Below, one piece after another: positions 16,782 to 25,198 of a stretch of DNA of 64,000 nt (position 1 is the first letter of the stretch; each line of letters begins with the position of its first letter). Below the pieces are notes generated by a model that made no database searches, was not told the DNA's origin, and was given only the letters and a program-made list of their open reading frames with translations. Source of the DNA: Ktedonobacter sp. (GTDB lineage Bacteria; Chloroflexota; Ktedonobacteria; Ktedonobacterales; Ktedonobacteraceae); NCBI GenBank assembly GCA_041156125.1, contig JBEVTI010000008.1, positions 63,659-127,658 on the forward strand. Reading direction: 5' to 3'. The translations under genes and the position numbers were made by a program.

Positions 16782-17214
16782 TTGACCTGTAACGTATTAT
16801 AGATAGTAGGATGTTAATCGTCCTATTAATAAGGTCTGCGCAACAAACCTGGCCAGCGTAAATTCCGGCAAAGAGCGCGCAACTCTGGTGAACAGGCTCT
16901 TTGTCCGAGCCAGAACAGAAAAGAGCGGCATACAAAAGTATTATCGCAACCATTTTTCTAACAGTCTCAATCAAGGGACTAGATGAAAGGGGGCTTTTCG
17001 GTTATAATTAGGAGTGGAGAAGGAATATTTTCTGGTCTCTCCGTGTTTGTAGAGATAGAAACACGGATTGCGATGCGTCTTTGACTTCCTCCCACTCGGT
17101 TTGCGGACACAGTATCCGATCGCAGAATTGCTTTCCTTGAGTGTGTAGAGCTGAACCGACGGAAGATACTGCTATCTTGCTGCTAAAGATACTACTGTTC
17201 ACGGAGGGCGCAAA

Positions 17215-18435
17215 ATGATTGAATTAGAACGTGGCACGGCAGGCACAATTTCATCCCGCCATGGCACCGATACGGAAAATCTTGATCTTGTTGAGAAACA
17301 ATATGACGAAATTTTGGGTCATTTGCTCAACAAGGACCTTACATACACTGACGATGGTGAATGCAATAGTAAGGATGAACCAGAGTTGGAAGAGGACCTG
17401 CCAGGTCTTGACACTGGCCCCCTGGAATTAGATGAAATGGCTGACATCCACGAGGAACTGGCTGCGTTGCCAGGCACTTCTGATCTCGAACCTTCTTCGC
17501 TTTTAACTCTGCCTGCGTTGACTACCGATGACGCCCAGCATGCGCGGCGCGTGCATCCCCGCCGCAGACGCTCGGAAGATGCAGAAGAAAATTCAGTCCA
17601 TAACTCCGATGCTGGTGAGTCGGACGCAGTAATGACCTATCTACGCGAAATCGGTCGCGTGCCCATGATTACTCATGAGCGCGAAATCGAACTGGCTCAA
17701 CGCATTGAGATGGGCGATCGCGCGGCGCAAAAACAATTTATTCTGGCAAATTTACGCCTGGTAGTGAGCATCGCGAAACGCTATGTTGGCCGCGGCCTGA
17801 CCCTGCTTGATCTTATTCAAGAAGGCAATATCGGCCTGATTCGCGCGGTTCAGCGCTATGACTGGCGGCGTGGGCATCGTTTCTCAACTCACGCGACATG
17901 GTGGATTCGCCAGGCAATCAGTAGAGCCGTCGCCGATAAAGGTCGGACCATTCGCTTACCTGTGTATGTAAACACCGCTCTGAACCGCATTCGCCGCGAA
18001 CGCCAGCGCCTGCTCCAGGAACTGGGACGCGAACCTACAGAGTTGGAGCTGGCCGAGGCTACGGGTCTCGATCCCATTCGTATGGTCGAACTCCAGGCCG
18101 CGCCTGGAGCGCCCGTCTCCCTTGAACTACCTGTTGGCGAAGATGAAGAACAGGAACTGGGCGACGTACTGGCTGATACAGAATCAGCCTCACCCGAAGA
18201 TATCGCGACCACTCAGACTCTAAAAGACGAAGTTCAGCGCGTCCTGGAATCCGTACTTACTCCCCGTGAACGCCTTGTCCTACAATTGCGCTTTGGTCTG
18301 AACAATAGTCAGGCCCATCCCCTTGAACAAGTTGGTCGCGAGCTGGGTATTACGCGCGAGCGCGTACGCCAGATCGAGGCAGGCGCACTGGCCAAACTAC
18401 GTCAACCACCCGTGCTGGACCGCTTACGCGGCTAA
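17215..18435 (+). CDS. RNA polymerase sigma-70 family factor (RpoD/SigA-like, regions 1.2-4 present, acidic N-terminus)
   Basis: AVMTYLREIGRVPMIT (1.2), NLRLVVSIAKRYVGRGLTLLDLIQEGNIGLIRAVQRYD (2.x), RTIRLPVY, and region 4 HTH LEQVGRELGITRERVRQIE. Confidence 0.9.
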   Translation: MIELERGTAGTISSRHGTDTENLDLVEKQYDEILGHLLNKDLTYTDDGECNSKDEPELEEDLPGLDTGPLELDEMADIHEELAALPGTSDLEPSSLLTLPALTTDDAQHARRVHPRRRRSEDAEENSVHNSDAGESDAVMTYLREIGRVPMITHEREIELAQRIEMGDRAAQKQFILANLRLVVSIAKRYVGRGLTLLDLIQEGNIGLIRAVQRYDWRRGHRFSTHATWWIRQAISRAVADKGRTIRLPVYVNTALNRIRRERQRLLQELGREPTELELAEATGLDPIRMVELQAAPGAPVSLELPVGEDEEQELGDVLADTESASPEDIATTQTLKDEVQRVLESVLTPRERLVLQLRFGLNNSQAHPLEQVGRELGITRERVRQIEAGALAKLRQPPVLDRLRG

Positions 18436-18520
18436 GCAAATAGCGCAGTCAGCAGAAAAATGCTGAACAAATGAGTTGCACTCGTTTGTTCAGCATTTTT
18501 CTGCTGACTGCGCTATTTGC
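18436..18520. terminator. 36-bp perfectly paired hairpin; candidate bidirectional terminator between convergent sigma factor and rel genes
   Basis: gcaaatagcgcagtcagcagaaaaatgctgaacaaa / 13-nt loop / tttgttcagcatttttctgctgactgcgctatttgc read directly; begins 1 nt after sigma stop and overlaps last codons of 18513..(-). Confidence 0.7.
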
Positions 18521-20909
18521 GCTTGCCTAAATCGCGCTCGACGTGGCTCACATCTTTGATGCGCGCCAGTTTCTGCAATACAATACGCATCTGCTCCAGG
18601 TTCTCAATTTCCAGCATGAGCGTGACCACTGCCTGCTCACGGCTACTAGAAATATGGGAACTAACAGAAGTTATGTTAACACCCGCCTCGGAGACGATAG
18701 CCGCGATGTCGTGAATCAGTCCCGAGCGATCGCGCGCAGTAATCACAACCGGCGCGAGGTAGCGCTGCTGGTCCATCGTGGTCCAATTGACATTGATCAG
18801 CCGTTCGCGCTCGCGCTCACGATAACGCTCAATATTTTTACAGTCAGCGCGGTGAATAATCGCTCCTTTACCCCGGCTGATAAAGCCCACAATCTCATCG
18901 CCGGGCAGCGGACAGCAACAGTTCGCCAGTGAGGTAAGCAAACCGCTCACCCCTGCCACCTGCAACTGCGGCGCGGGCGTGCTACGCGTGACCACGGTCA
19001 GAGTGCGCTCTTCTTTGATCTCGACGCCATAAAGCTCTTGAACCTTGACCACTACGGCGCGCGGACGCAGTTCGTCGCAGCCAATACTCGCCAGCACATC
19101 CGCGAATGCCTCTTTGGCAAAGAACTTGCACAGCGCCTCCTGCGCGTCTTCGCCAATCTCTTCAACATCACGTATCGCCAGACCCTTCAGCTCGCGCTCC
19201 TGATTTTTCAGCTCACGCTCCAGGCGCTCGCGTCCGATCTGTATATTAATATCGCGCTCATAGACCTTTAAGTAGCGGCGAATCTTGCTCTTGGTCGCGG
19301 CAGTGCGCGCGAAATTTAACCAGTCGCGTGTTGGGTGAGCCGTACGTGTGGTAATGATATCGACAATATCGCCGCTCTGCAACTCGTAGTCCAGTGGCAC
19401 CATACGAGTGACCATATGTTTACCATCGCCATTGCCACTCTCGGTCGTCACGCGCGCGCCCGCGCAATGATCGCCGACCTGTGTATGCACGCGGTAAGCA
19501 AAGTCTAGCGGCGTCGAGCCAACAGGCAGATCTTTGACCTCGCCTTTAGGCGTAAAGACGAAAATCTGCTCTTCCAGAAATTCGTCGCGTACAGCTCTGA
19601 CAAACTCGCTATCACTGGAGGTGGTAGCATGCAGTTCGCGCTGCCATTCAGCCAATTGGCGCAGCCAGGAAAGTAACTCCCTGGCCGAGGCCGAGGCATG
19701 ATCGCCGATATCTTTATAGTGCCAGTGCATCGCGACACCATATTCGGCCTGCTCGTGCATCCCATGAGTGCGAATCTGCACCTCTACCAGCTGATCCTCC
19801 AGACAGAAGATCGTTGTGTGTAAAGCCTGGTAACCGTTGGGCTTAGGATTGGCAATAAAATCCTTGATACGCCCCTCTTTCGGCCTCCAGAGACTATGAA
19901 CATGTCCCAGAGCCAGGTAACAATCTGAGGTTGTATCGACCAGGATACGAAAGGCAATAAGGTCATGGATCTGGCTCAAATCAGCCTGGCTGAGAGCCTC
20001 AATCCGTCCATCATCGCTCATCGAGCGCTTAAGTTTTTGATAAAAACTGTAGAGATGCTTGACCCTGCCCGAAACTTCAGTTTGCAAACCCAATTTGCCC
20101 ATCTCGTCGCGCAAAATTGTGCAGACACGCTCGACATAAGCTCGCCACTGCTTGCGTTCTTCTTCGATCACGCTTAGCAGCCAGGTGTATTTCTCTGGCT
20201 CTAACACAGCGAAGGCCATGTCCTCCAGCTCGCTCTCCAGGCGCGACATACCCAGGCGACCGGCCAGCGGCGCGTAAATCTCCTGCGTCTCCCGCGCCAT
20301 CGTCAACAATTCCTGCGCATCCACAGCATAGCTCTTTGCGTAACCTACGCGCATCAAATGCAGTCGATAGGCCAGTTTTAAGAGCACAACGCGCGGATCT
20401 TCCGCCATCGCGAAGAACATCTTGCGTATCGTTTCCGCCTGGCGACGACGCTGATTTTCACGAATACGCTGCTTTTTGGGATCGTTGTTCTCTGCCTCAG
20501 CCTGACTAAGCTGAACTTGCGTCATACTTTGTTGCTTACGCTCCAAAATATTCATACGCAGCATACTATCCACGACACGCGCTACTGCTATCCCCAGCTC
20601 TTCCTCAACTTGCTCTAACGTCACCAGAGCGGCATCCACTGCTTCAAAAATCAGACCAGACGAGATCCCGATCGCGTCAATATGCATTTGCGCCAGAATA
20701 TTGGCTACAGCTAACGCGTACTCTAAAGGGGGGATCAAACGCAAACCACGCACACCTTCGCAGGTCTGTCGCGCGAGTTGGAGAGCATTTCGCACCTGCT
20801 CCTGTTCCACAGGCGGCATATAGCTTGCGATAAACTGGAGTAATTTTTGAACCGCGTCCCCAACAGGCTCCTTCTCTGCCGGCTCTTCACTAGTTGGCAT
20901 TTTTATCAT
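18513..20909 (-). CDS. RelA/SpoT homolog (HD-like, synthetase, TGS, ACT); hydrolase HD domain degenerate, synthetase motifs intact
   Basis: Synthetase motifs GRVKHLYSFYQK, GRIKDFIANPKPNGYQALHTT, EVQIRT, AEYGVAMHWHYKD present; HD region reads IPPLEYA...LIFEAVDAA...LAYRLHL (HP, HD and ADRLHN residues substituted). Start set at MIKMPTSEE. Confidence 0.85.
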   Translation of the reverse strand: MIKMPTSEEPAEKEPVGDAVQKLLQFIASYMPPVEQEQVRNALQLARQTCEGVRGLRLIPPLEYALAVANILAQMHIDAIGISSGLIFEAVDAALVTLEQVEEELGIAVARVVDSMLRMNILERKQQSMTQVQLSQAEAENNDPKKQRIRENQRRRQAETIRKMFFAMAEDPRVVLLKLAYRLHLMRVGYAKSYAVDAQELLTMARETQEIYAPLAGRLGMSRLESELEDMAFAVLEPEKYTWLLSVIEEERKQWRAYVERVCTILRDEMGKLGLQTEVSGRVKHLYSFYQKLKRSMSDDGRIEALSQADLSQIHDLIAFRILVDTTSDCYLALGHVHSLWRPKEGRIKDFIANPKPNGYQALHTTIFCLEDQLVEVQIRTHGMHEQAEYGVAMHWHYKDIGDHASASARELLSWLRQLAEWQRELHATTSSDSEFVRAVRDEFLEEQIFVFTPKGEVKDLPVGSTPLDFAYRVHTQVGDHCAGARVTTESGNGDGKHMVTRMVPLDYELQSGDIVDIITTRTAHPTRDWLNFARTAATKSKIRRYLKVYERDINIQIGRERLERELKNQERELKGLAIRDVEEIGEDAQEALCKFFAKEAFADVLASIGCDELRPRAVVVKVQELYGVEIKEERTLTVVTRSTPAPQLQVAGVSGLLTSLANCCCPLPGDEIVGFISRGKGAIIHRADCKNIERYRERERERLINVNWTTMDQQRYLAPVVITARDRSGLIHDIAAIVSEAGVNITSVSSHISSSREQAVVTLMLEIENLEQMRIVLQKLARIKDVSHVERDLGKRK

Positions 20910-21323
20910 GGCACGTTTCCAGTCAACAACATAAGAGGGCTTCCTCGCTGAGTAAACAGATAAACAGGCACTACACTCGCGGCACCCATTCACCCGCTCA
21001 GCATGAGGCGCGCTATGCGTTGTAAGCATAGATAGGCTCTGGTTACTAATCCTCGATCACTCTATTTCTTTCACGCCCATTACAGATAATACGTAGACCG
21101 CAGAAAAAATTCCCCTTTCCCGGCCAGGTTTTATCCATAACCCACTGCGCTTCTGCATCACTCTATTTAGACGATCGTGAATGTTTCGCGAATAAAGCGC
21201 AAAAAAAACGCACTACATAATCCAGACATATCAGTACGCGGCGCCAACGTCAGCGGCCCGGCGCCGTACACAAGCAGCCAGTTATGACTCATGATCTAGC
21301 GTGAAGAACGCACTGCACAGGCT

Positions 21324-23639
21324 CTAGCTGGTGTGGCGCCCCAGATCACGCGCCACGCTGACTACATTTTTGACCTGTTTAAGCTTCTCGTAGACGGGAT
21401 CAATCTGGTCAAGCTGGGTGATTTCAAGTGTAGCAGTAATCGTAGCACGTTGGAGCGAGCTTCTAGTCGTAGAAGCCATTGCGGTTATGTTAATACCAGC
21501 GTCGGAAACTACCGCGGCTACGTCGCGCAGCAGACCAGGCCGATCGCGCGCGACTACTATTGTGGGAACCAGAAAATGCTGTATCTCTATCTGGAGCCAG
21601 TTGACATCAATCAAGCGCTCACTCTCCTGATTACGATAACGGCGCAGAGTGCGACAGTCACTACGATGCACAATAATTCCCCGATTGGGGTTGACCGTGC
21701 CAGTAATCGCATCTCCAGGCAAGGGGCAACAGCAGTGAGCCAGGTTGACGACAATCAATGGCGCTTCATTCTTTTCAGAACTCTGCGTCAGACTCTGTTT
21801 GCGACTTTCAATACTCTCACTGGTCTTGAAGTCTCCGCGACTTTGCAGGATGGGGGCCAGATGATTGATCAGAGCCATCACCGGGAATTCCGCGCGGCCT
21901 AGCGCGAGATAGAGGTCATCCACTGTGATGTATTTCTTACTAGCAAGAAACTTTGTCAGATCTTCATCCTGGACGATCCCAATGCCGTTGGCTCCCATAG
22001 CCTTTAATGCCAGATCAACGCGCTCACGTCCCAGTTGCAAGTTGACTTCTCGCTCGTACGTTTTGAGATAGCGGCGGATCTTGTTCTTGGCCGAAGACGT
22101 ATGGGCAAAGTTTAACCAGTCACGAGTTGGATGCATCTTTGGATTAACAATGATATCTACAATCTCACCGCTTTTGAGTTCGTAGTCCAGCGGAGCAAAG
22201 CGCGTCACCAGACGCCCACTATCCTCCATATTGGTAACGATGCGCGCGCCAGCGCAGTGATCGCCAATATCGCTATGAACACGATAGGCCAGATCCAACG
22301 GCGTCGAGCCACGCGGCAGGTCTTTGACCTCGCCCTTGGGCGTAAAGACAAAGATCTGCTCCTGAAAAATATCCCCTTTGACCGCTTCAACAAACTCATC
22401 CGCGTTTTGCGGCAACTCACGCTGCCAATCTCGCAGTTGTTCGATCCAGGCAATCATCTCATTGGTAGAGAGGCGCGCACCGCCGCGATCCTTCATATAC
22501 CAGTAACTGGCAATGCCATAGTCCGCGGTACGTTGCATCTCGTGCGTGCGAATCTGAATCTCGGTCAGACGATTATCCAGACCAAAAACGGTGGTGTGCA
22601 GCGACTGATAGCCATTGACTTTCGGAATAGCGATGAAATCCCTGATGCGCCCATCAGTTGGACGCCAGAGCGCATGAATATAGCCCATCGCCAGGTAACA
22701 ATCGTGAACCGAGTTCACCAGAATGCGGAACGAAACCAGGTCGTGAATCTGCTCAATCTCGCCATTGTTCTGTTTCAACTTGCCGTACAGGCTGGACAGG
22801 TGCTTCTGCCAGGAATACACCTCAGCTTTAATACCGGCGTTCTGCATTTCTTGTCGCAACATCTGACAAACTCCCTCAGTGTGCGACTCGCGTTTTACGC
22901 GCTCTTCCTCAACTTCGCGAGCCAGCCAGGTGTATTGTTCAGGTTCCAGATAACTAAAGACGAGATCCTCCAGTTCAGCCTGCACAAGGATCATGCCCAG
23001 CCGCCTGGCCAGTGGCGCGTAGATCTCGCGCGTCTCGCGCGCCTTACTCTGCTGCTGCGTGGGATTCATCGCGCTCAGTGTACGCATGTTATGCAAGCGA
23101 TCTGCCAGCTTCAAGACCACTACACGTGGATCTTCGGCCATGGCCAGCAACATTTTGCGCACAGTTTCGCTCAACTGACGACGCTTCAGGTCACGCACCT
23201 GGCGCTGACGTTGCTCCATCTGCTCGGGCGTCTCAGGTATGCCTGGCGCTGGTTTCTCTTTGCTACCCTTGGATTTCAGCGCCAATGCGTCAAACTTGGT
23301 GACACCATCGACAATGTTGGCCACAGCTTCCCCAAAGCGCGTGCGCAATTCCTCCAGTGTAAAATCTGTATCCTCTACCACATCGTGGAGTAGCGCCGAG
23401 GCAATCCCATCCGCGTCAATACGCATATCCGCCAGCAAGAGCGCCACCTCCAATGGATGCAGGATGTACGGTTCCCCTGAACTGCGCGCAACTCCGGTAT
23501 GGGCTTGTTGTGCAAGTTCAAAGGCATCTTGAATCTTCTGCAGATCCTCTAGAGATAGGTACTCTGATGTCTCAGCCAGGAGATGCTCAAGCGTTATCTG
23601 AGATAATGCGATCGCTTCATTAGAATTAATGGCTACCAT
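21324..23639 (-). CDS. RelA/SpoT homolog with intact HD hydrolase domain; synthetase motifs partly substituted
   Basis: HPLEVA...LLHDVVEDT...LADRLHNMRTL intact; synthetase region SWQKHLSSLYGK (R to W), GRIRDFIAIPK (K to R), ADYGIASYWYMKD (H to Y). Start set at MVAINSNE with GAGGTG upstream. Confidence 0.85.
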   Translation of the reverse strand: MVAINSNEAIALSQITLEHLLAETSEYLSLEDLQKIQDAFELAQQAHTGVARSSGEPYILHPLEVALLLADMRIDADGIASALLHDVVEDTDFTLEELRTRFGEAVANIVDGVTKFDALALKSKGSKEKPAPGIPETPEQMEQRQRQVRDLKRRQLSETVRKMLLAMAEDPRVVVLKLADRLHNMRTLSAMNPTQQQSKARETREIYAPLARRLGMILVQAELEDLVFSYLEPEQYTWLAREVEEERVKRESHTEGVCQMLRQEMQNAGIKAEVYSWQKHLSSLYGKLKQNNGEIEQIHDLVSFRILVNSVHDCYLAMGYIHALWRPTDGRIRDFIAIPKVNGYQSLHTTVFGLDNRLTEIQIRTHEMQRTADYGIASYWYMKDRGGARLSTNEMIAWIEQLRDWQRELPQNADEFVEAVKGDIFQEQIFVFTPKGEVKDLPRGSTPLDLAYRVHSDIGDHCAGARIVTNMEDSGRLVTRFAPLDYELKSGEIVDIIVNPKMHPTRDWLNFAHTSSAKNKIRRYLKTYEREVNLQLGRERVDLALKAMGANGIGIVQDEDLTKFLASKKYITVDDLYLALGRAEFPVMALINHLAPILQSRGDFKTSESIESRKQSLTQSSEKNEAPLIVVNLAHCCCPLPGDAITGTVNPNRGIIVHRSDCRTLRRYRNQESERLIDVNWLQIEIQHFLVPTIVVARDRPGLLRDVAAVVSDAGINITAMASTTRSSLQRATITATLEITQLDQIDPVYEKLKQVKNVVSVARDLGRHTS

Positions 23640-24065
23640 CCAACACCTCGGCGTTTCGGGAAGAATATCTTGCACCTAGTTTAAACCACAAACGCGTACA
23701 ATGCAACGAAAATGTCAGGCGTTCTCGATATAGTATCTTACGGATAACGAACAAGTAATGTCACGAATCCGCGCCTGGCCCGTATATTTAACGCTCTCTA
23801 GGGCCTGGACCGGCTTAGCAAGACCGATCCCGCGCAACGCCGCGCTCCTGATAGAGGGTTCCCTCGCTGGAACAAATTTCTCTCGCTCTTAAAATACATT
23901 CCCCCTAATAAGGACGTAATGTCAAGAGGCTTCTTAAAAGATGTGGCAAATTTGGGGAAAAGGAAAACCCCTATCCAACCATACACTCAGGTAAGGCTGA
24001 ATAGGGAGTGAAAACGGCTCTTCTAATTAACATCATCAGAAGGCCGATTAAGAACATTCGCTTAG

Positions 24066-24431
24066 CTAACTGCGGGCCACGCGAATCTTATCGTAGCAGG
24101 AGCTGCAATAGACAGGTCGGTCGTTCTTGGGCAGGAAAGGTACCTGCGTCTCCACACCGCACTCCGCGCAAGTGACAGTATGCATCTCGCGAGGCGCACG
24201 CTCAGAACGTCCGCCAGATCCAGCTTCCGAGCGGTGGCGCGCACGACAACTCGAACAACGGCTAGGCTGATTCAACAGACCTTTTTGCTGGTAAAACTCC
24301 TGTTCGCCTGCGGTAAAAATGAAATCATTTCCGCAATCACGGCATTTAAGGGTCTTGTCAACGAAACTCAAACCAGAGACCTCCTTGTGATATGATGGTA
24401 TTCCTCCGGGTCCATATCCTTGCAGAGTCAC
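24066..24431 (-). CDS. tandem CxxC zinc-ribbon protein (zf-trcl-like)
   Basis: Two modules CxxC-x(17-20)-CxxC: KCRDCGNDFIFTAGEQEFYQQKG...CSSCR and CAECG...CSSCYDK. Confidence 0.55.
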   Translation of the reverse strand: MTLQGYGPGGIPSYHKEVSGLSFVDKTLKCRDCGNDFIFTAGEQEFYQQKGLLNQPSRCSSCRARHRSEAGSGGRSERAPREMHTVTCAECGVETQVPFLPKNDRPVYCSSCYDKIRVARS

Positions 24432-24714
24432 CAGTCGTCTGTCACCTCTAGCAGCGCGGGACTAATTGTTCTGGACGAACACTGTATACCAGACCGAGAT
24501 CGGATACCGTTGGAAAGCATACACTATACTTTAGCGATTAGCAAGACTTTTTCTTTTAAAAGCAGGGGCTTCTTCACATTTTAATAAAATTTTTATGTGT
24601 ACTCTGTCTATATAGGAATTTTAAATGCTTAAACTGTATTTAGTAAGGCTGCCAAACAGAACCAGTGCTCTGTCAAGCTTCAGTTGAGGAATGCGAGAGA
24701 ATGGAAGTGCAGTC

Positions 24715-25049
24715 TGAGTCATCCCTGATTTTGCAAAATCAGACCAAAACAGGTTTTGCCTCCCCGCCCCCTTGTGTTTTGCAGAGGTTTGGCGGGCGTT
24801 GCAGCGCACGCCAAACCTCTGCAAAACACAAGGGGTGGGGAGGACAACGCGCTCATGCTGCTTCAGAAAAATTGGATACCGTTGGCGAACTCCTTTTATG
24901 AGCCTCTGGCACCTCGCACCTGTTCTTGTGTGGCTGGTGAGCGGCCTGGCCGCTCACCAGCCACACAAGAACAGGTGCGAGGTGCCAGAGGCGCCGAGGA
25001 GTCCAGAAGAAGCGTGCGCCAACGGTATCAAAAATTGGGGATGACTCAT
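24715..25049. mobile_element. MITE-like palindromic repeat element, copy 1 (about 335 bp) with inverted termini CTGAGTCAT / ATGACTCAT
   Basis: Contains 86-nt near-perfect palindrome 24905-24990 nested inside gataccgttggcg...cgccaacggtatc; second copy at 57418-57679 in opposite orientation. Confidence 0.6.
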
Positions 25050-25198
25050 AGTGCCCCAGCCTTCTCCCCCCTCCAGGGATGTAGGGAGGTTTCGTCAAAC
25101 AAAGTTTGACCGAGTACCAGTAAATCTACAGCTTGACGCTGGTGAGAAAATGAGGGCAGCAATTTGCTCAATCAGTAGAATGGTATTCAAAGAAATAA

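Follow-up and report, generated by a model that had tools for sequence, protein, structure and literature searches.

Two adjacent genes in a 64,000-nucleotide stretch of Ktedonobacter sp. DNA (contig JBEVTI010000008.1, hereafter the window) probably represent tandem paralogues of a duplicated bifunctional Rel, with the opposing activities of RelA/SpoT enzymes, which make and break the starvation signal ppGpp, divided between them. Each gene encodes a long RelA/SpoT homologue (RSH). The downstream one, P1, is strongly supported as a synthetase-only copy, functionally RelA-like, by the residues it has lost and kept. For the upstream one, P2, a hydrolase-dominant and functionally SpoT-like role is plausible but weaker, and we consider it fairly probable that synthesis has been lost in it. 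Its source belongs to the soil bacteria of the class Ktedonobacteria, and all coordinates below are whole-window positions.

Both genes lie on the minus strand, head to tail, within intact open reading frames (ORFs) spanning 18513..21029 for P1 and 21324..23675 for P2. P1 itself occupies 18513..20909 (798 aa) and P2 21324..23639 (771 aa), and each was 100% identical to a public protein from a Ktedonobacteraceae metagenome-assembled genome (MAG). These are P0001 (795 aa), which NCBI names 'RelA/SpoT family protein', and P0121 (771 aa), named 'bifunctional (p)ppGpp synthetase/hydrolase'. An earlier reading made from the letters alone (the sequence-only reading) had placed the start codons at 20909 and 23639, which is plausible, the NCBI start of P1 being at 20900. 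It had also assigned the full HD-synthetase-TGS-ACT layout to both proteins, and this was borne out by Pfam matches to HD_4, RelA_SpoT, TGS, RelA_AH_RIS and ACT_4 in each of them and by the long-RSH family model TIGR00691 spoT_relA, which P1 and P2 passed with 561 and 665 bits, respectively (cut-off 499). From the N-terminus on, P1 is made up of a pseudo-hydrolase HD domain, a canonical synthetase, TGS, AH/RIS and ACT, and P2 of a canonical hydrolase, a synthetase with an altered ATP pocket, TGS, AH/RIS (zinc-finger CCHC) and ACT. The general HD model PF01966 matched P2 only. Both proteins keep the CCHC zinc finger and, in TGS, the His by which the CCA end of tRNA is read (H432 in E. coli RelA); they are 45% identical over their whole length of ~780 residues. 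No RSH domain was found in the window beyond these two.

Residue states were read from an alignment to the structures of RelSeq (1vj7), B. subtilis Rel (6yxa) and M. tuberculosis Rel (5xnx) and to RelA and SpoT of E. coli MG1655, with RelSeq numbering throughout. The substitutions fell on the metal-binding and catalytic positions of the hydrolase in P1, and on ATP-site positions in P2. Indeed, P1 carries H53Y, H77F, D78E, E81D, D82A, D144Y and N148L and is without the metal-binding and catalytic residues of the hydrolase. At the position of LLHDVVED it reads LIFEAVDA (20631..20654, minus strand; H77F, D78E, E81D, D82A), where the HD ligands and the ED diad are gone, and at that of KLADRLHNMR it reads KLAYRLHLMR (20349..20378, minus strand; D144Y, N148L). 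The losses that the sequence-only reading had described as HD to FE and ADRLHN to AYRLHL were thus real, but its third one, HP to PP, was misaligned and off register. We rejected it, as H53 aligns with a Tyr in the window P1 (PLEYALA) and most P1 orthologues, 105 out of 120, keep His there.

The other replacements were fixed across the class. For each paralogue at least 120 full-length orthologue clusters were available at 65% identity or above, and site counts were taken from 120 of each. Among P1 orthologues, F77 was present in 119 and E78, D81, A/S82 and Y144 in all 120, while site 148 was A, L, V or S in 120/120. The synthetase motifs of P1 are canonical, as had been claimed: GRVKHLYSFYQK, DLIAFR, GRIKD, YQALHT, EVQIRT and AMHW, with G240, R241, K243, S247, K251, D264, R269, R295/K297/D298, Y308, H312, E323, Q325 and H342 in place. 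All 15 synthetase sites scored were canonical in at least 118/120 orthologues (R241 in 119, H342 in 120). Judged by the residues of a bifunctional Rel[HS], P1 departs at five HD sites. The synthetase-only reading of P1 is strongly supported by this class-wide replacement of hydrolase residues together with the faster evolution of its HD core described below. P1 shares with RelA the combination of a degenerate, non-catalytic HD domain and an intact synthetase, a common property that is no evidence of common ancestry. We also noticed an insertion of 11–20 aa just past K251 of the synthetase ATP motif in P1 orthologues (P1 residues 293–304, ~19998–20033), which is lacking in P2 and in other long RSHs (19–28 residues between the anchors, versus 8).

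P2 showed the reverse pattern. All seven hydrolase sites (H53, H77, D78, E81, D82, D144 and N148) are canonical in P2 and in 119–120 of its 120 orthologues, in agreement with the Mn-dependent HD active site of SpoT and with what the sequence-only reading had stated; the intact HD and ED motif LLHDVVED lies at 23370..23393 (minus strand). Its synthetase motifs, on the other hand, are changed from GRPK to SWQK, from RFKD to RIRD and from AAHW to ASYW. P2 reads YSWQKHLSSLYGK at the position of GRPKHIYSIYRK (22779..22817, minus strand), with G240S and R241W and with K243, S247 and K251 retained, and IASYW at that of VAAHW (22500..22514, minus strand), where His is replaced by Tyr. This Tyr342 occupies the site of H354 in E. 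coli RelA, H344 in M. tuberculosis Rel and H342 in RelSeq; by the same alignment, the Gly of GRPK is G251 of E. coli RelA and its H354 is the His of AAHW. W241 was found in 119 and Y342 in 117 of the 120 P2 orthologues. Of the 150 other long-RSH representatives, ~146 keep R241 and ~145 keep H342. Thus, R241 and H342 are near-invariant elsewhere and G240 is variable, which makes R241W and H342Y the diagnostic changes of P2 at the level of sequence, and it is at these two sites that P2 departs from the residues of a bifunctional Rel[HS]. Of the substitutions that had been proposed earlier, R to W and, within AAHW to ASYW, His to Tyr are fixed, but RIRD, although real, is local. We rejected it as a meaningful change, as K to R is conservative and occurs in 5/120 P2 orthologues, the others having the canonical RIKD. 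G240S was likewise rejected as a sign of inactivation, since S, A, T, Y, N, H or W stands there in ~20 otherwise canonical representatives.

What the two diagnostic changes would do can be gathered from previous work. A literature search on the G241E and H344Y variants of M. tuberculosis Rel, which reportedly abolish synthesis, gave no relevant paper, and we build on the E. coli RelA mutants G251E and H354Y instead. The adenine of ATP is sandwiched by R241 and R269 (PMC7983052), and the R241 equivalent in T. thermophilus Rel (RelTt), R249, also contacts the α-phosphate (bioRxiv 10.1101/670703). RelTt variants with multiple substitutions that include R249A (e.g., R249A/R277A) lose most synthetase activity (bioRxiv 10.1101/670703). 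The R241W change would consequently remove from P2 the Arg that stacks on adenine and binds the α-phosphate. According to the passage of PMC4154780 that cites Gropp et al., ppGpp synthesis is lost in the G251E mutant of E. coli RelA and reduced in the H354Y mutant, and H342Y of P2 amounts to a natural change of the H354Y type.

Next to the residue states, evolutionary rates separated the two proteins. Using the same ten genomes for both paralogues (45 species pairs), identity among orthologues in the HD core was 63.9% for P1 and 80.6% for P2, P1 being lower in 45/45 pairs. This low value fits a pseudo-hydrolase that is still retained. In contrast, the synthetase domains were equally conserved (74.3% for P1, 75.0% for P2), indicating that the synthetase domain of P2 is not decaying as a whole, and the C-terminal halves gave 63.0% and 63.4%, respectively. 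Sporadic losses of synthetase residues were seen in P2 only, namely Q325H in 5 of the 120 orthologues, a changed R269 in 6 and D264N in 1; four of the five Q325H sequences are 86–87% identical to the window P2. Leaving out G240, R241 and H342, non-canonical residues at the 12 remaining scored sites amounted to 19/1440 cells in P2 and 2/1440 in P1, counts that come from related sequences and not from independent events.

A divergent lineage of the same order went further. In neighbour-joining trees of ~170 full-length long RSHs (100 bootstraps), two representatives from Ktedonobacterales MAGs, P0278 and P0387, branched beside the pair. The locus that carries P0278 (L083, 3527–8238, MAG GCA_036393135.1) is arranged in tandem as well, with a 4-nt overlap between the two genes. 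In the upstream copy the HD domain is canonical and the synthetase carries K251D, E323Q, Q325H and H342E; in the downstream copy AP stands in place of HD, and the synthetase is canonical. Judged by these residues, complementary loss is complete in the L083 lineage, which supports an assignment of hydrolysis to the upstream and synthesis to the downstream gene throughout the group.

Several observations weigh against our interpretation, most of them against a loss of synthesis in P2. Many of these would also fit an asymmetric split as in E. coli, in which P1 would be synthetase-only and P2 fully bifunctional, its ATP site working in a W241/Y342 variant form. P2 has the full set of catalytic and G-loop residues, which are more than 95% conserved across the 120 orthologues, and the window P2 itself keeps the catalytic D264, E323 and Q325 and the guanine-stacking Y308, besides R269, RxxD and H312. 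Trp could still stack on adenine, in principle, where Arg makes a pi-cation contact, the change from His to Tyr is conservative, and G240S carries little weight at a site that is variable in canonical Rel. The synthetase domain of P2 is not relaxed overall; it is as conserved as that of P1, which is unexpected for a dead domain unless it is regulatory. The tRNA-sensing TGS His and the zinc finger are kept. NCBI, as mentioned, names the protein 'bifunctional'. Furthermore, P2 is unlike the SpoT of Acinetobacter baumannii, in which the TGS His is lost and loops are short and disordered (PMC9974481), as it keeps this His and has a long, not short, loop between helices α6 and α7 of the HD domain. 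Finally, the L083-type upstream copy did not group with P2 (5–9% bootstrap, neighbour-joining), which may reflect long-branch behaviour, and the phylogeny as a whole is a neighbour-joining one only.

Despite these points, a fully bifunctional P2 seems to us rather unlikely. It would need to work without two residues that nearly all other long RSHs retain, and Trp cannot bind the α-phosphate as R249 of RelTt does. The H354Y change, described in the cited passage of PMC4154780 as a reduction and not a loss, does lower RelA activity. In addition, the catalytic Q325 has been lost in close relatives of P2 and in no P1 orthologue, and the upstream copy of L083 has lost synthetase catalytic residues altogether. 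Another possibility is that the synthetase of P2 has been repurposed, its altered nucleotide pocket serving another pyrophosphate donor or product, or else allosteric sensing that controls the hydrolase. This idea, which we regard as improbable, comes from the fixation of Trp241 and Tyr342 in an otherwise conserved active site under selection as strong as in P1. If it were true, the two Ktedonobacterial genes would go beyond a repetition of the RelA/SpoT scheme.

We then come to the origin of the pair, which we interpret as a duplication inside the Ktedonobacterial lineage, separate from the RelA/SpoT event. The locus scan, with one genome per species, recovered P1 orthologues at 58–87% identity in 80 loci, all from Ktedonobacteria. 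P2 lay directly upstream of P1 in 78 of these 80 genomes, and the other two had insufficient flank. Genera with the tandem pair include the cultured Ktedonobacter, Ktedonospora, Dictyobacter, Tengunoibacter, Ktedonosporobacter and Thermogemmatispora, and the loci with P1 orthologues include those of K. racemifer, four Dictyobacter species and strain brp13. In the trees, each paralogue group had 100% bootstrap support. P1, P2 and the divergent synthetase-only forms formed one clade at 91%, and at 87% once the divergent hydrolase-type forms were added; the HD-only tree did not resolve the sister relationship of the paralogues and was uninformative.

Two structural features are common to both paralogues. 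The first is an insertion of 9–14 aa in the TGS domain, present in all Ktedonobacterial long RSHs of either paralogue type. Between the anchors GAR(V/I) and PLDY, both paralogues have 15–20 residues; 141 of the 142 other representatives have 6 there, and E. coli RelA and SpoT belong to these. In the window, the segment reads RIVTNMEDSGRLVTRFAP in P2 (22191..22244, minus strand; 16 residues between anchors) and RVTTESGNGDGKHMVTRMVP in P1 (19395..19454, minus strand; 18 residues). The second is the α6–α7 loop of the HD domain, which has 37–67 residues in both paralogues. The median elsewhere is 15, about the length in typical Rel, and E. coli RelA has 21. In the window it comprises 41–43 residues (P2, 43, at ~23126–23254; P1 at ~20393–20515; both minus strand). 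A long loop in P2 runs against the reported trend of short loops in hydrolase-specialised long RSHs. Incidentally, we dropped the idea that the TGS insertion and this loop are contact partners that expanded together, as the β-hairpin of the SpoT TGS domain that touches α6 is the N-terminal one (residues 379–392) and lies apart from the segment with the insertion.

A horizontal origin of one of the genes, for instance a proteobacterial RelA or SpoT settled beside a resident Rel with no local duplication, could be suspected from the RelA-like layout and pseudo-hydrolase of P1 and from the several hundred bits that both proteins reach with the equivalog models of RelA and SpoT. We find it very improbable. 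Both proteins were far below the cut-offs of these models (RelA, NF008124, 728 bits: P1 461, P2 457; SpoT, NF008303, 947 bits: P1 469, P2 545), and Ktedonobacterial paralogues grouped with E. coli RelA or SpoT in 0/100 bootstraps with every partition. P1 retains RxKD (GRIKD), whereas E. coli RelA has ExDD (DEFDD), a motif distinction described previously (PMC4154780), and among the lineages sampled the common TGS insertion was confined to this one. Leaving aside the cluster representative of the respective other paralogue (47%), identity of P1 or P2 to the closest non-Ktedonobacterial representatives is at most 40–41%, compared with 45% between the two. Neighbour-joining support, the common TGS insertion and the RxKD of P1 make a lineage-specific duplication well supported by the sequences. 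The sequence-only reading had proposed an independent subfunctionalisation, and the phylogeny, with 87–91% support for one clade, upholds it as far as the independent duplication is concerned. Its picture of a mirror of the RelA/SpoT split stands for a synthetase-only P1; for P2, loss of the synthetase is probable rather than proven.

An earlier survey reported a single Rel[HS] in Chloroflexi, with Ktedonobacteria absent from its sample (Atkinson 2011, PMC3153485), and our literature search found no paper linking Ktedonobacteria with RSH enzymes. A further sequence, P0246 (L084, 3713–6082), is a long RSH that is single-copy in its locus and branches beside the clade of the Ktedonobacteria. Its HD domain is canonical, R241 and H342 are present, its α6–α7 loop has 37 residues, and it is without the TGS insertion. 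These traits make it a candidate for the closest unduplicated Rel.

That one copy is a decaying pseudogene, or that the differences are assembly or sequencing artefacts, is scarcely credible even for a window taken from a MAG, as both ORFs are intact, full-length orthologues at 65% identity or above number at least 120 for each protein, the same substitutions occur in isolate genomes, orthologues in the named genomes show no frameshifts or stops, and the C-terminal and synthetase domains are clearly constrained in both copies. As a matter of fact, FE, D[A/S], Y144, W241 and Y342 are each fixed in 117–120 of 120 orthologues and are no product of chance or sequencing error.

From the gene structure, residue states, conservation, tandem distribution and phylogenetic placement observed here, we infer the following enzymatic activities and regulation. 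A bifunctional Rel gene would have been duplicated on the way to the class Ktedonobacteria (Chloroflexota). The HD domain of P1 would have become unable to bind the catalytic metal and would persist as a faster-evolving, presumably regulatory pseudo-hydrolase. With its synthetase site, TGS His and zinc finger intact, P1 would be capable of both synthesis and sensing and, on starved ribosomes, would make (p)ppGpp from ATP and GTP or GDP. P2, whose HD residues are intact and invariant, would be the (p)ppGpp hydrolase of the cell, its own synthetase being weak or absent owing to the weakened ATP site, and it would be needed to clear what P1 makes. The pair would be transcribed in one direction, ending at a bidirectional terminator hairpin shared with a convergent sigma-70 gene.

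The sequence around the genes offers some indications as to this last point. The spacer between P2 and P1 (20910..21323, minus strand) is 414 nt long and without a convincing promoter or terminator; in 78 related loci this spacer is mostly 15–1025 nt (median 181). A consensus scan of 17000–24800 for promoters and terminators gave hits no commoner than in shuffled sequence and did not call the hairpin discussed next. Downstream of P1 lies, on the plus strand, a gene whose product Pfam places in the sigma-70 family, with regions 1.2, 2, 3 and 4 (17215..18435), a convergent context gene that is not part of the RSH pair and that is kept downstream of P1 in most related loci. The gap between the two genes is filled by a hairpin (18436..18520) that folding gives as a 41-bp stem with a 3-nt loop. 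Its arms, 18436–18476 and 18480–18520, are 41 nt each and 98% complementary, and its folding energy is −78.4 kcal/mol (z = −15). It starts right behind the sigma-70 stop codon (18433–18435), spans the P1 stop codon (18513–18515) and occurs once in the window. The sequence-only reading had described convergence with sigma-70 through a 36-bp hairpin, which we confirmed, the 36 bp being the perfect part of the 41-bp stem. A5 and T5 lie on either side of the inner stem, TGCTGAACAAATGAGT/ACTCGTTTGTTCAGCA, a layout known from bidirectional intrinsic terminators, yet both tracts are paired within the 41-bp stem. Related genomes with a short P1–sigma gap (L004–L081) mostly have a long, near-perfect hairpin there (~15–40 bp) with unrelated sequence. 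Hence, across genomes, the structure of the gap hairpin is conserved and its sequence is not. The hairpin may well act as a shared bidirectional terminator.

An Rfam scan of the window matched no family. Elsewhere, between a treble-clef zinc-finger gene and tgt, we noticed a nest of palindromes (24697–25066), which no Rfam family matches. It holds a perfect 45-bp inverted repeat (24902–24946 and 24948–24992, the arms being 1 nt apart), another one of 46 bp at 85% (24756–24847) and, outside, two inverted pairs. ORFs overlap on both strands at 24697–25066 and are probably artefacts of these palindromes.

If our interpretation holds, Ktedonobacteria offer a further independent replicate of the route by which a duplicated Rel divides synthesis and hydrolysis between its copies, in a distant phylum, still in tandem and class-wide. 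The same split was already known in beta/gamma-Proteobacteria and, in complete form, in Moraxellaceae. As the L083 sister lineage has gone all the way, the class would provide a natural series of intermediate states. One can ask which substitutions are enough to silence each active site, whether specialisation requires short loops or a change from RxKD to ExDD, and whether it is for allostery that pseudo-domains persist. Annotation would be corrected as well, P2 now bearing the name 'bifunctional' and P1 being merely a 'RelA/SpoT family protein'. Members of the class sporulate, grow as mycelia and have large genomes; they are studied for their secondary metabolism, for which ppGpp control may matter.

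Among known systems, the RelA[hS] and SpoT[HS] of beta/gamma-proteobacteria are alike in being two long RSH paralogues born from a Rel duplication. As in the E. coli pair, the HD domain is degenerate and the synthetase intact in one member (P1, compared with RelA), the hydrolase is intact in the other (P2, compared with SpoT), and TGS, zinc finger and ACT/RRM are kept in each. The duplication event is different, however, and the genes are unlinked in E. coli and adjacent in Ktedonobacteria. The HD replacements are FE/DA/Y in P1 and FP/DA/E in E. coli RelA, which has ExDD where P1 has RxKD. Unlike the E. coli pair, the Ktedonobacterial copies carry the TGS insertion and the long α6–α7 loop. E. 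coli SpoT keeps R241 and H342, and P2 has neither. RshA, RshB, RshC and RshD (Atkinson 2011) are also independent Rel duplicates nested in Rel, in other phyla, and the accessible part of that study describes no tandem arrangement or reciprocal synthetase change for them.

The end state that we propose, one synthetase-only and one hydrolase-only protein with the dead domain kept as a pseudo-domain, is the same as that of Moraxellaceae RelA[hS] and SpoT[Hs]. The A. baumannii SpoT is hydrolase-only and has lost the catalytic D272 and Q347 and the guanine-stacking Tyr (RelTt numbering) (PMC9974481; Atkinson 2011, PMC3153485). The Moraxellaceae type is further marked by α6–α7 and Core loops that are short. 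Compared with this SpoT[Hs], P2 keeps D264, Q325, R269 and Y308, and of the base-binding and catalytic residues only R241 is lost. Catalytic losses of the Moraxellaceae type were met in the upstream copy of L083 (E323Q, Q325H) and, for Q325, in the 5 P2 orthologues mentioned above. Going by these residues, P2 is no copy of the Moraxellaceae solution, and it is the L083 lineage that stands nearer to the Moraxellaceae state than the window P2 does.

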